64,000 bases of DNA, from the IMG/VR virus record IMGVR_UViG_2864653697_000002; one strand, 5' to 3'. Made by a program: the position numbers and the translations under genes. This document shows, in pieces, positions 55,551-59,924 of this stretch. This DNA comes from a virus. Its lineage: Duplodnaviria; Caudoviricetes. Every line of letters starts with the position of its first letter. Position 1 is the first letter of the stretch. The notes under the pieces were generated by a model, which searched no databases, was not told where the DNA came from, and was given only the letters and a program-made list of their open reading frames with translations.

Positions 55551-55895
55551 ATGACTGTGGCTTGCTGTCCGAATTGCGGCTTTGACATCACGAAGGACGA
55601 CCTTGTCGAGCGAGATGGCTTCAAGCTGCACCCGCGCGAAGGGCTTGGATCATATCTCGGCCGTTCCATCGGACTGACTGGCTCAGAACTCGTGCTGCTC
55701 CACACCATCGGACAAGCCAAGCGCACGATCAGCCGCGAGGCGCTGCACAACCGTGTTTCTGACTGCGAGACCTTCCCTGAGATCGTGGGCACCTTCGTCT
55801 GCAAGATCCGCAGCAAACTGCGAACGGCCGGCGTTCCAGACCCCATCGAGACGGTGCGAGGCAAGGGATACCGTTGGAAGTCGGTGGCAGCATGA
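55551..55895 (+). CDS. Stand-alone OmpR/CtrA-like winged-helix DNA-binding protein
   Basis: LTGSE...IVGTFVCKIRSKL...IETVRGKGY; N-terminal CPNC; no receiver domain. Confidence 0.8.
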   Translation: MTVACCPNCGFDITKDDLVERDGFKLHPREGLGSYLGRSIGLTGSELVLLHTIGQAKRTISREALHNRVSDCETFPEIVGTFVCKIRSKLRTAGVPDPIETVRGKGYRWKSVAA

Positions 55896-57247
55896 CCGCC
55901 TTCTACAACGAGTGCGACCCCTACGCGGCGCAGTGGCTCCGCAACCTGATCGACGCCGGCCACATCGCGCCGGGCATCGTCGACGAGCGCGACATCCGAG
56001 ACATCACGCCAGCGGAGCTATTCGAATATGACCAATGCCATTTCTTCGCTGGGATCGGCGTTTGGCCTTACGCGCTCCGTCGCGCCGGATGGGCGGACGA
56101 TCGTCGGATCTGGACTGGATCGTGCCCTTGCCAACCATTCAGCGCGGCGGGCCGAGCAGGAGGGTTTGCTGACGAGCGGCACCTTTGGCCCCACTGGTTC
56201 CACCTCATTTCGCAGTGCAGTCCTCCAGTCATCCTTGGAGAGCAGGTTGCGTCGAAGGACGGCCTCGCATGGAACGATCTTGTATCGGTTGACATGGAAG
56301 CAGCGGGTTACGCCTTCGGGGCGGTCGATATCTGCGCTGCGGGCATCACCGTGGACTGGGAAAGCAGCCAAGCCGGGGAATGGTTACGCCGGGCCATTCA
56401 CGATTGCTCAGATCCCGGCGTCACAGCCATGCTTCGCGATTTTGCCGATTGGGCTGGCGCAGGAAATCTCGGCGATGGCGGCGAGCACATTCGACAGCGG
56501 CAATACTTTGTCGGGGTGGCCGACGCCAGCAGCTCACGAGCCGGGCGGCACACCGGAGCAGCATCTGGCGCGGAAGCGCGCAGCGGCAGCACGTGGCATC
56601 CAGATGGGCACGACGGCGGTGACACACTGTTCACTGGTAGCTCAACTGGCAGGCTGGACCACCACCACCACCAGGGACCACAAGGACTCGCCGGGAATGA
56701 CGGCGAAGCGCTCGGACAACGGCAAGGATCGGAACGACCAGCTTCCGAGGCAGGCGTATCTGACGGGCTGGACGACGACGACGACGACAGACGCGCTTCG
56801 GCATCCGTCACCGGACTTCGCGACGCCGAACATCACGCTGAACCACGCGGGGGTGCTCAGCGGATGGCCGACGGCCCGCACAGCGGACGGGGAGAAGAAC
56901 GTCCGGACGTTGGAGGGATCGCTGTCGGAGATCGGACGCAAGGGCTCCCCGCAGGACACAGCAGCAGCAGCAGCAGCGATCACGACGCCAATGCGCCTCA
57001 GCGCGGACGGCCGGCTGTCGACTGGCTCTTCTGCCGGGATGGAAAGTGGCGGGCAGTTGAATCCGGCACATTCCCGTTGGCTCATGAAGCTCCCGCGCGA
57101 GTGGGACGCCTGCGCGCCTACGGCAACGCGCTCGACGCCGAAACGGCGACCGAGTTCATCAGCACCATCAAGGCGATCCTCGACGGTGAACCGGATGCTG
57201 CTGTTCGCAGCGATGGCGGCATAGACTTCGAGGATTTGATCGGATGA
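55892..57247 (+). CDS. C5-cytosine DNA methyltransferase, alpha polypeptide
   Basis: FFAGIG (I), GSCPCQPFS (IV), GEQV (VI), [10 protein letters not shown] (VIII), RLRAYGNA (X); no motif IX in this frame. Confidence 0.88.
56028..57224 (+). CDS. Nested alternative-frame beta polypeptide of the C5 methyltransferase (start uncertain; ATG 56475 possible)
   Basis: Four GW[PT]T units and motif IX-like [18 protein letters not shown]. Confidence 0.75.
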
Positions 57248-57930
57248 CTGAACGCGAAAAGATCGCTGCGCGCATTCGTGCGCTGCGCGCCAAGACCGTC
57301 GAGAACGGTTGCACAGAGGACGAAGCCATTGCGGCCGCCGAGATGCTGGCCAAGCTCCTCGCCAAGCACAACATGACCATCGACGAAGCGGAGATGCGCG
57401 CATCTCCGTTCGAGCAGCACAGCCAGTCCCACGAAGACCGCGTCGGCGAGAGGCTCTGGAAGATCGCGGCCACCGTCTCGGAACTGACCGGAACGCGCTA
57501 CTGGACGTCACGACCCGGAGTGTATCCGATCGAAATCACCTTCTTCGGCTTTGCGCACGAAGTCGAGGTGGCGCGTTACATGCTCGAGATCTGCGCTGGC
57601 GCCATGCGCCGCGAGCATGCCCGCCTGGAACGTGAAGCATGGCCTCGCATCCTGCGGCGCAGCAAGCTGCTTCCCTTCCTCGACGGCATGGCAGATCGTC
57701 TCGCCCTGCGCATCCGCGACCTGATCCCGCCGAAGCCGGTAGGCACCGGCCTCATGGTGCTCCATGACGAACTGGGCGCGGCGGCATCCCCGAAAACCGA
57801 GCCTTTGCGTGCACGCGGCAGTCGCAATCTTGAGACAGGCTATCTCGACGGCTTGGCGGCCGCTGACCGCGTCGCACTCAACAAGGGACTGACCGGCGGC
57901 GCGCGCCAGGCGGAGGCGCTGATCGGATGA
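57244..57930 (+). CDS. DUF2786-like protein
   Basis: REKIAARIRALRAKT...EAIAAAEMLAKLLAKHNM. Confidence 0.75.
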   Translation: MTEREKIAARIRALRAKTVENGCTEDEAIAAAEMLAKLLAKHNMTIDEAEMRASPFEQHSQSHEDRVGERLWKIAATVSELTGTRYWTSRPGVYPIEITFFGFAHEVEVARYMLEICAGAMRREHARLEREAWPRILRRSKLLPFLDGMADRLALRIRDLIPPKPVGTGLMVLHDELGAAASPKTEPLRARGSRNLETGYLDGLAAADRVALNKGLTGGARQAEALIG

Positions 57931-59924
57931 GCAACCGCGAAGAAATCGCCGCAATTATCGACGCCGCCGGCTTCGACCCGGCGCGCACGCTCGTGTGCGA
58001 CACCGAGTGCTATCCGAACTTCTGGTCAATCGGCTTCTGGCGCGTGAGCGACGGCAAGACACTGGTCATGGAGCATTCGGAGCGCAAGCCGTTCACCGAC
58101 GCCAATCGCGACCGCATCCGCAACCTCATGCGGTCGAACACGATGATCGGCTACAATTTCCTGAACTATGACCAGGGCATGATCGCGCACGCGATCGACG
58201 GCGCCACTAACGCGCAGCTCAAGTCCCTCAATGACCGCATCATCCTTGGAAATCTGCGCTACTGGCAGCTCCGCGATCTCGACATCTACATCCCGGAAAG
58301 CTGGGACGTTGTCGATCTGATCGAGCCGCAGCCCAACGCCATCGCGTCGCTTAAGACCCTCGCCGGCCGCATGCACGCACCGCTGATGCAGGATCTACCA
58401 TTCCATCCCGATCAGGTGCTCACCGAGGAGGAGATGGACAAAGTCCTGTTCTATATGGGCAACGATCTCCAGAACACCGATCTGCTGCGCCAGCACCTGA
58501 TAGACGCGCTCCAGATGCGCCGGGCGATCGGCGCTGACTTCGGCCTCAACTTCATGTCAAAGTCCGACGCACAGATGGGCGAGGCAATGATCAAGAGCCG
58601 CGTCGAGCGCATGACCGGTTCGCGCGTCTACAAGGTCGAGACGCCGCCGGGCACGACCTTCAACTACAATCCCCCGAAGTGGCTCAAGTTCGAAACACCG
58701 CAGCTTCAGGCCATTCTCGAGCGCGTCCGCGGCAGCGAGTTCTATATCAAGGGCGGCAAGGACGCGGGCAAGGTCCAGGCGCCGAAGTGGCTCGAAGAGG
58801 AAAGCCGCATCGTCATCGGCGAGACCGAATATGCGATGGGCATCGGCGGTCTGCACTCGACAGAGAAGAACCGCGCAGTTCACAGCGATGAGGATTATGT
58901 CCTCTTCGACTTCGACGTTGCCTCCTACTACCCGGCTATCATTCTCAACGCCGGTCTGTATCCGAAGGCGCTCGGCCGCGAGTTCATCGACGTCTACCGC
59001 GAGATCCGCGACGAGCGCGTGGCCGCCAAGCGCGCGGGCGATAAGACGAAGGACAAGGGGCTCAAGATTGCCCTGAACGGCTGCTTCGGCAAGCTCGGCT
59101 CGAAATATTCGGTGCTCTACGCGCCGCACCTGATGATCGCGATCACGCTCGGCGGCCAGCTCGCCCTGCTCATGCTGATCGAGCGCGCCGAGCGCGCCGG
59201 CATCCAGGTTGTATCGGGCAACACGGATGGCGTCGTCTTCCGCTGCCCGCGCGAACTGGCCGGGAACGTCGTCAAACAGCGCCTCGACGGCGGCCTCCTC
59301 GCCGAGATCGTCGAAGAGTGGGAGCGAGAGACCGGCTTCGAGCTTGAAGCAACGGAATACAGCTCGCTCTACAACGAGTCCGTGAACAGCTATCTGGCCT
59401 TTCAGCCCGATGGGAAGGTCAAGGTCAAGGGCAAAGGCTGGACGGGCCGGCACGACAACGACATCCGCACCCAGCTCATGAAGAACCCCTTCGCCGAGGT
59501 GGTTACGCTGGCTGTCATCGCCTACATCCGCGACGGCGTCCCGCTCGAAGAGACGATCCGCGCTTGCACCGATCTGCGCGATTTCGTCAGCGTGGTGAAC
59601 GTCAAGGGTGGCGGCACCTGGCGCGGCGAATATCTGGGCAAGGTGGTCCGCTACTACTGGTCTACGGACGGCGACGGCATCTTTTACAAGGAGGCCAACG
59701 AGTCGACGGGCAACCATAAGCAGGTGTCGAACACGGACGGCGCCAAGCCGCTGATGAACCTGCCCGCTGACGGCGCCTTGCCCGACGACATCGACTATGA
59801 TCGCTACGTCCACGAGGCGCGCGAGAAGCTGATGAACATCGGCTTCGACAAGCGGCCCGAGAAGGTCCGCCCGCTGCGGATCTACAAATGGTCCGCCATG
59901 GCGTGGTTCGCAGTGGCGGTATGA
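57927..59924 (+). CDS. Family B DNA polymerase with 3'-5' exonuclease
   Basis: DTECY (ExoI); DFDVASYYP; KIALNGCFGK; NTDG. Confidence 0.92.
   Translation: MSNREEIAAIIDAAGFDPARTLVCDTECYPNFWSIGFWRVSDGKTLVMEHSERKPFTDANRDRIRNLMRSNTMIGYNFLNYDQGMIAHAIDGATNAQLKSLNDRIILGNLRYWQLRDLDIYIPESWDVVDLIEPQPNAIASLKTLAGRMHAPLMQDLPFHPDQVLTEEEMDKVLFYMGNDLQNTDLLRQHLIDALQMRRAIGADFGLNFMSKSDAQMGEAMIKSRVERMTGSRVYKVETPPGTTFNYNPPKWLKFETPQLQAILERVRGSEFYIKGGKDAGKVQAPKWLEEESRIVIGETEYAMGIGGLHSTEKNRAVHSDEDYVLFDFDVASYYPAIILNAGLYPKALGREFIDVYREIRDERVAAKRAGDKTKDKGLKIALNGCFGKLGSKYSVLYAPHLMIAITLGGQLALLMLIERAERAGIQVVSGNTDGVVFRCPRELAGNVVKQRLDGGLLAEIVEEWERETGFELEATEYSSLYNESVNSYLAFQPDGKVKVKGKGWTGRHDNDIRTQLMKNPFAEVVTLAVIAYIRDGVPLEETIRACTDLRDFVSVVNVKGGGTWRGEYLGKVVRYYWSTDGDGIFYKEANESTGNHKQVSNTDGAKPLMNLPADGALPDDIDYDRYVHEAREKLMNIGFDKRPEKVRPLRIYKWSAMAWFAVAV

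Follow-up and report, generated by a model that had tools for sequence, protein, structure and literature searches.

A prophage locus for a probable two-chain C5 cytosine methyltransferase, with a modular unit array in a nested reading frame

The window analysed here is a 64,000-nucleotide (nt) stretch of viral DNA (Duplodnaviria; Caudoviricetes; IMG/VR record IMGVR_UViG_2864653697_000002), and all positions refer to it. Within this window, 1.2 kb of prophage DNA on the plus strand is open in two same-strand frames at once. The outer gene, alpha (frame A; 55892..57247, from an ATG at 55892 to a stop at 57247; 451 amino acids), encodes the catalytic chain of a C5 cytosine methyltransferase, and the inner gene, beta (frame B, equal to A+1; 56028..57224, from an ATG at 56028 to a stop at 57224; 398 amino acids), lies wholly within it on the same plus strand, as do all alpha and beta features given below. 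The two frames overlap by 1,197 nt, and the stop-to-stop opening of frame B, which starts at 55950, spans 424 codons. A first-pass annotation made from the letters and their open reading frames (ORFs) had described two frames open together for about 1.2 kb between 55892 and 57247, and this description is confirmed in both respects. The upstream gene ends in a stop that overlaps the ATG of alpha (ATGA), and the stop of alpha overlaps the ATG of the downstream gene at 57244 in the same manner; 55892-57247 can therefore be taken as the true gene limits. These overlaps on either side of alpha also suggest translational coupling along the operon.

Since the window is GC-rich (62% GC) and contains many spurious long ORFs on both strands, the openness of a frame by itself proves nothing, and frame B could be viewed as a chance opening rather than a gene. 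The comparative data refute such a GC artefact as the source of frame B, leaving this explanation a practically negligible probability. Searches of each frame by tblastn against 50,697 phage records placed frames A and B at the same sites in more than 200 phages, with B always in the A+1 register. In Salmonella phage epsilon15, where the GC fraction of the locus is 0.52, 348 codons of the +1 frame are open within the gene annotated as a methyltransferase and show clear homology to frame B, and the methyltransferase gene of an Aeromonas phage likewise has an open, homologous +1 frame. When 104 loci from phage records, GTDB genomes, IMG/VR and metagenomes were compared, +1 nesting with an overlap of at least 700 nt was kept in 103 of them, at gene GC fractions of 0.53-0.69, so that frame B is open and conserved even at 53% gene GC; E-values in these comparisons go down to 1e-116. 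When the codons of frame A were shuffled synonymously, the longest +1 ORF averaged 194 codons, and the observed 424 were reached in none of 1,000 shuffles (0/1000). Database searches returned more than 4,600 beta homologues, mostly unnamed and none with a Pfam domain, and an exhaustive search at E<=1e-3 brought the family to 9,661 cluster representatives. Fused long forms are limited to four proteins above 697 amino acids, which resemble read-throughs. The dual constraint described below points in the same direction.

The sole exception to the nesting belongs to an uncultured Burkholderiales metagenome-assembled genome (L013:1501-2543), in which a shift of one base joins alpha up to and including PCQ (its first ~90 residues) in frame to beta, the rest of alpha lying in a separate ORF that has no start; the locus reflects an error of assembly or else is a broken copy. 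Protein scans of genome contigs and viral contigs with a single sequence recovered distant relatives only. One IMG/VR contig carries a giant form (L024:193-2045) with an alpha of 607 codons, a beta of 587 codons and an overlap of 1,735 nt, in which one unit of the kind described below is followed by a short tandem NTP repeat. Two others (L025:1027-2160 and L026:994-2766) hold beta-like ORFs that are divergent, with WPxP units and an end reading LN..FVEWLMGWP, for which no alpha partner was found with the alpha of this window as query at E<=1e-5. The nested family may be wider than single-sequence searches reveal.

Constraint was mapped along the gene by aligning 21 loci and projecting their identity onto the window, the +2 translation serving as control. 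At 55892-56160, frame A is constrained alone, with a third-position identity of 0.49 versus 0.76-0.82 at positions 1 and 2, and conservation of the +1 translation is no higher than that of the control. Over 56222-56345, alpha third-position identity is 0.68 and the +1 translation reaches 0.58 versus 0.45 for +2; at 57020-57125, where both frames are also constrained, the corresponding translation identities are 0.66 and 0.53. In the regions of dual constraint, alpha third positions are as conserved as first positions (0.68-0.74), compared with 0.49 in the alpha-only part. Between 56520 and 57000, frame A is unconserved (identity 0.05-0.29) and frame B is conserved at its units. A frame plot of GC content at third codon positions (GC3) switches from A to B and back to A, in agreement with this map. 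Both frames are under purifying constraint where both carry conserved sequence. Across beta's unit array, the alpha frame is stop-free in 83 of 84 loci, whereas synonymous shuffles of beta bring in ~3 stops and leave it stop-free in only 7.6% of cases; because the array stays free of stops despite an unconserved alpha sequence, alpha is under selection to read through to its C-terminus.

The assignment of alpha draws on both sequence and predicted structure. Its match to PF00145 (28.3 bits, cut-off 22) is limited to residues 73-119, corresponding to motifs IV-VI, while it matches phrog_363 at 2e-62, and a profile of 60 alphas matches M.HhaI at 8e-16 over motifs IV-VIII. The AlphaFold model of alpha resembles M.HaeIII and M.HhaI; with VIA-align it is placed on M.HhaI at Z 13.8, residues 1-433 of the model on 34-325 of M.HhaI with 160-190 residues aligned. 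Motif IV, with the catalytic cysteine of PCQ (56117..56143; C80 and Q81 invariant in 60 alphas), motif VI, which is ENV-like and reads GEQV (56237..56248; G116, E117 and Q118 invariant), and motif VIII, RxR (56486..56509; R201 and R203 invariant), align to motif IV, ENV and QxRxR of M.HhaI, respectively. At the C-terminus, a hairpin and a motif X helix (57017..57181; W378, D383, R387, G411 and N412 invariant) are modelled by AlphaFold2 as strands at 376-390 and a helix at 416-430, aligned to M.HhaI up to its residue 325; this segment overlaps the motif-IX-like end of beta in the other frame.

The first-pass annotation had assigned motifs I-VIII and X to frame A. Motifs IV, VI, VIII and X are borne out, whereas a motif I at the start is not: residue 1 of alpha corresponds by alignment to residue 34 of M.HhaI and to position 25 of TIGR00675, and the chain begins at the equivalent of motif II. 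An FxGxG-like, motif-I-like segment (residues 51-58; 56042..56065), whose G54 and G56 are invariant in 60 alphas, follows the motif II/III equivalents, lies between motifs III and IV and aligns weakly to motif I of M.HhaI. This order, at 55892-56070, suggests a permuted S-adenosylmethionine (SAM)-binding subdomain in comparison with canonical C5 methyltransferases; in the alpha of Paenibacillus phage Shelly, the order is canonical.

Between these two conserved portions lies a low-complexity linker (56540..56982), which is the out-of-frame reading of beta's unit array. AlphaFold2 is confident at residues 1-216 and 376-430 and models 217-363 as disordered, with a predicted local distance difference test (pLDDT) score of ~35 for the linker, where frame A identity is 0.05-0.29. 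No recognition domain or motif IX was found in the alpha chain, frame A being unconserved and modelled as disordered from motif VIII to the hairpin that precedes motif X. On this modelling, alpha is predicted to comprise the large catalytic domain only, with a disordered linker of ~150 residues in place of the recognition domain.

Directly before motif VIII, a 46-codon insertion (56348..56485) distinguishes a subfamily, the corresponding columns being gapped in 95-100% of the 21 aligned loci. It had been noted at first reading as an insertion of roughly 40 amino acids in alpha; the insertion is real, but its attribution to alpha alone is not sustained. It is common to 13 beta relatives, in which many beta-frame residues are invariant, and in two further loci (L035 and L042) the frames are about equally conserved, at 45-67% in A and 45-52% in B. 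Structural models give a helical hairpin in alpha and two strands plus a helix in beta. Conservation in both frames indicates that the insertion is dual-coded rather than confined to alpha.

Four parts make up beta: first a conserved N-domain at residues 36-108, then the units, a tail that is also conserved, and the motif-IX-like end. The N-terminal domain (56133..56351), a helix followed by a beta-hairpin, is overprinted on alpha motifs IV-VII, and its columns are near-invariant in 68 betas; AlphaFold2 places the helix at 64-80 and the hairpin at 86-108, with pLDDT of 70-91. Beta matches phrog_31772 and phrog_1008, both PHROGs labelled DNA methyltransferase, and has no Pfam or NCBIfam family match and no sequence relative in the PDB. 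From the upstream stop to the conserved domain, the ATG at 56028 is the sole start codon, and a candidate Shine-Dalgarno site, GGAG (56014..56017), can be read from the sequence 10 nt upstream of it; in relatives, an ATG with AGGAG or GGAG recurs at a comparable position. At the other end, a segment of the form LNPxxxxWLMxxPxxW (57057..57104; L28, W35, L36 and P40 of alignment A4 invariant in 48 loci) sits a short way upstream of motif X of alpha, the place it has in enzymes of one chain. This end of beta fits the textbook pattern of motif IX, a resemblance that makes it a candidate motif IX of the enzyme.

The arrangement of these parts could also be read as that of a single polypeptide made through two programmed frameshifts, +1 after motif VIII and -1 after the motif-IX-like segment, which would rebuild the canonical chain of motifs I-VIII, recognition domain, IX and X. 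The conserved pieces do follow the canonical motif order along the DNA when taken from frames A, B and A, and the GC3 plot switches in the same way. However, frame B is already open and conserved over the ~115 codons that precede any such shift, in a region of dual constraint, and frame A is conserved for ~30 codons upstream of the return point, where it overlaps a conserved segment of frame B. Moreover, the stretch from motif IX to the stop of beta contains a canonical -1 slippery heptamer in none of 102 loci (0/102), a start codon and a Shine-Dalgarno site of its own are available to beta, and the read-through frame of alpha is kept open, which frameshifting would make unneeded. The double-frameshift chain was rejected on the lack of a slippery heptamer and the conservation of both frames across the would-be shift points, and we judge it very improbable.

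A precedent for two separate chains is provided by M.EcoHK31I from E. coli HK31 (target YGGCCR), a heterodimeric C5 methyltransferase for which both chains are required (Lee, Kam and Shaw 1995, via PMC2836561, PMC3404938). Its beta is likewise encoded wholly in the alpha gene, on the same strand and in another frame (PMC2836561, PMC3404938), which makes the analogy drawn by the first-pass annotation an apt one; by the published description, the likeness extends to the distribution of motifs, its alpha carrying those up to VIII plus X and its beta motif IX. The two systems differ in that the alpha of M.EcoHK31I keeps the target recognition domain and its beta contributes only motif IX, whereas here the alpha linker is disordered and unconserved, and beta is a 398-amino-acid chain with a conserved N-domain and a modular unit array. 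Furthermore, M.EcoHK31I belongs to a restriction-modification pair, whereas the gene described here is an orphan in a prophage. M.AquI (CYCGRG) is another C5 methyltransferase that occurs naturally in two chains, split within the variable region (PMC3404938); its motifs IX and X are both on the small subunit and no nested frame is reported, whereas here motif X is on alpha and the genes overlap fully.

We consider it likely that the locus encodes a two-subunit nested C5 methyltransferase of the M.EcoHK31I kind, in which all target recognition has moved to beta. A heterodimer from two frames, as proposed at first reading, finds strong comparative support in the nesting of 103 of 104 loci, the constraint on both frames and the start codon with its Shine-Dalgarno site. 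In the proposed mechanism, alpha and beta would assemble into an orphan prophage DNA cytosine-5 methyltransferase produced from one stretch of DNA. Alpha would supply the SAM-binding region, the catalytic PCQ cysteine, the ENV-like and RxR motifs and the C-terminal motif X helix, reading through ~150 unconserved codons as a disordered linker to reach the latter; the linker would have no conserved sequence of its own because it is the out-of-frame reading of beta. Beta, translated inside alpha from its own ATG at 56028 with GGAG, would be the equivalent of the small domain, composed of the N-domain, four GWxT modules and the motif-IX-like end docking on alpha. The split would accordingly fall on a domain boundary, with the large domain and the motif X helix on alpha and the whole recognition half on beta. 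In C5 methyltransferases, the small domain makes all sequence-specific contacts (PMC3404938), and beta should for this reason set the target. The likely benefit would be protection of phage DNA from host restriction.

A different reading accepts beta as a real protein and denies it the role of methyltransferase subunit; it could, for instance, be overprinted on the methylase gene and act independently in DNA binding or against restriction. Profiles give no link between beta and C5 methyltransferases, the model of beta alone has no significant fold match, and viral overprinted genes are often functionally unrelated. Conversely, alpha has no conserved segment from motif VIII to the pre-X hairpin and hence no recognition domain of its own, the end of beta fits the motif IX pattern and is correctly placed with respect to motif X of alpha, and the nesting recurs not only in 103 of 104 loci but also in Firmicute phages whose alpha is canonical. 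With M.EcoHK31I as a precedent, we regard a beta unrelated to methylation as unlikely.

Several observations nevertheless weigh against the two-subunit enzyme as proposed. Translation of beta and its association with alpha are inferred from sequence comparison. Its first ~45 codons show no constraint beyond that of alpha itself, which makes the true beta start uncertain. Folded alone, beta has a pLDDT of 58, and Foldseek gave no significant fold match. The first-pass placement of motif IX in the second frame stands as far as the conserved pattern at 57057-57104 is concerned but failed at detection by profile: PF00145 matched 0 of 68 betas, and PDB profile searches with the whole beta and with its C-terminal segment returned nothing meaningful; as no profile search confirmed it, we treat the assignment as putative. 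For the array, unit typing is based on the clustering of short sequences, and no specificity data were found for any family member.

The central part of beta is an array of four units of ~30-45 residues, each opening with a GWxT head. The first-pass annotation had counted four such units in frame B, and all four are present, at 56511 (first given as 56512), 56649, 56763 and 56859. Unit 1 (56511..56648) is of type E, its best same-type match being 88% identical in backbones that are 56-65% identical; unit 2 (56649..56762) is of type A, the commonest type, and is 95% identical to the corresponding unit of the homologue P0001; unit 3 (56763..56858) is of type G, with a best match 90% identical in a backbone 63% identical; and unit 4 (56859..56975) is of type C, with a best match 85% identical in backbones 55-65% identical. 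The order in the window is thus E-A-G-C. Trinucleotide runs occur in the array at 56655-56672, 56769-56789 and 56951-56978, encoding poly-Thr and poly-Ala in beta and His4, Asp6 and Ser6 in alpha, and a change of length by threes could leave both frames open.

Among 120 homologues, the number of GWxT heads per beta ranges from 1 to 7, with a mode of 3. Clustering of 697 units from 225 betas gave at least 14 recurrent types with their own consensus and 187 distinct architectures. None of the types occurs in every beta, a protein seldom has one type twice, and the order of types is variable. The nearest relatives sharing the insertion read, for instance, B-A-M, I-K-A-E-B, B-A-E-C and K-B-A-J. 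The best matches to units E, G and C of the window (85-90% identity) occur in betas whose N-domain is only 55-65% identical, and P0001, the nearest backbone (84%), has only unit A in common with the window. Similarity between unit heads at the DNA level is limited to 12-33 nt, which makes the units diverged cassettes rather than recent duplications. With 1-7 units, at least 14 types, and units gained, lost and reordered even among close relatives, the expandable array suggested at first reading is borne out at this level, and comparison of sequences supports both an expandable array and exchangeable modules.

The modules are probably the DNA-reading parts of the enzyme, in which case the module set would determine the methylated sequence or sequences. 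How they would do so can be read in two ways. In one, the two-subunit enzyme is real and the modules form one composite surface, spacers or docking repeats serving a single target. The GWxT(P) head common to all modules, like that of structural repeats, speaks for this, as do the existence of betas with only one or two units, the lack of sequence similarity to the target recognition domains (TRDs) of Bacillus phage enzymes and the lack of Bacillus phages among the matches. Against it stand the unfixed order of the modules, the lack of a universal type, the rarity of repeated types within a protein and the movement of modules between backbones. We see this composite arrangement as a serious candidate, at a little less than an even chance.

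In the other, the modules would act separately. That each module reads its own target, making the enzyme multispecific, seems to us plausible while falling somewhat short of probable, no similarity to Bacillus phage TRDs having been seen. A further step would make the GWxT modules independent, swappable cassettes of ~100 nt, whose shuffling reprograms or widens the targets of one catalytic chain with the alpha frame kept open, and this we put forward more tentatively, as a possibility on the doubtful side. The pattern of shuffling fits independent cassettes better than one cooperative fold.

Multispecific C5 methyltransferases have reportedly been characterised by Trautner and co-workers in the Bacillus phages SPR, phi3T, rho11s and H2, as single polypeptides encoded in a single frame, and the independent specificity of each of their modules is said to have been proven. 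As in beta, tandem short modules lie between the catalytic core and motif IX and vary in number and order among relatives; core and modules there form one chain, whereas here frame A encodes the core and frame B the modules. The tblastn search with beta against the 50,697 phage records returned no Bacillus phage among the named organisms, although short divergent modules could escape such a search.

Comparable nested pairs can be found, as annotation only, in GenBank records of a few phages. ORF29 and ORF28 of Escherichia phage K1ind1 (L111) and gp55 and gp56 of Paenibacillus phage Shelly (L112), where the inner gene bears the label 'g55 internal gene', are +1 nested, and in both phages the two genes are annotated as DNA methyltransferases; the beta of K1ind1 has one unit, and the alpha of Shelly has a canonical N-terminus. 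Both inner ORFs carry WxTP-type units and an LNP...W.M/LMG.P end. The papers on these two phages give two methyltransferase genes and leave the nesting undiscussed. The annotation of Erythrobacter phage R6L (L001) misses alpha and gives as the methyltransferase no more than a C-terminal portion of the beta frame. A limited literature search found no paper on a wide distribution of the nested layout or on the module array. The nested layout is known experimentally from one enzyme and is widespread, mostly unannotated, in phages.

The methylase lies in the replication module of the prophage, where the gene order is a DUF2800 nuclease-like protein, an Enc34-type single-stranded DNA-binding protein, a small winged-helix protein, the methylase, a DUF2786/DUF7168 protein and a large polymerase-like ORF. 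The winged-helix protein (55551-55895; 114 amino acids) is of the OmpR/CtrA type (PF00486, 4e-10) and has a CxxC pair and no receiver domain. The downstream ORF (57927-59924; 665 amino acids) is polymerase-like by eye, with no Pfam match at E<=1e-3. The methylase has no restriction gene as a neighbour, and the 4.2-Mb host genome holds a single copy of it and no other PF00145 match. Sixty genomes of the same genus or the same order contained no beta homologue (0 of 60), and for this reason no close prophage relative is available for comparison.

At 1.2 kb, the overlap ranks among the longest stretches of same-strand dual coding in which purifying selection is clear for both frames, and the dual-coded family to which it belongs comprises thousands of phage and prophage genes. 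Standard annotation mostly retains one gene, with the result that the methylase is routinely taken for a whole enzyme in one chain, for a pair of unrelated 'methyltransferases' or for a broken gene. Should beta prove to be the recognition subunit, predictions of specificity for this large class of orphan phage methylases must use the hidden frame. If, in addition, the modules are independent cassettes, the locus would represent a naturally occurring cytosine methylase that is combinatorial and multispecific and whose gene is dual-coded throughout, and in the subfamily with the insertion before motif VIII, one insertion would give both chains a folded element simultaneously. Such cassettes would offer a natural toolkit for programmable cytosine methylation, as well as a clean case of selection handling insertions that must work in two frames.

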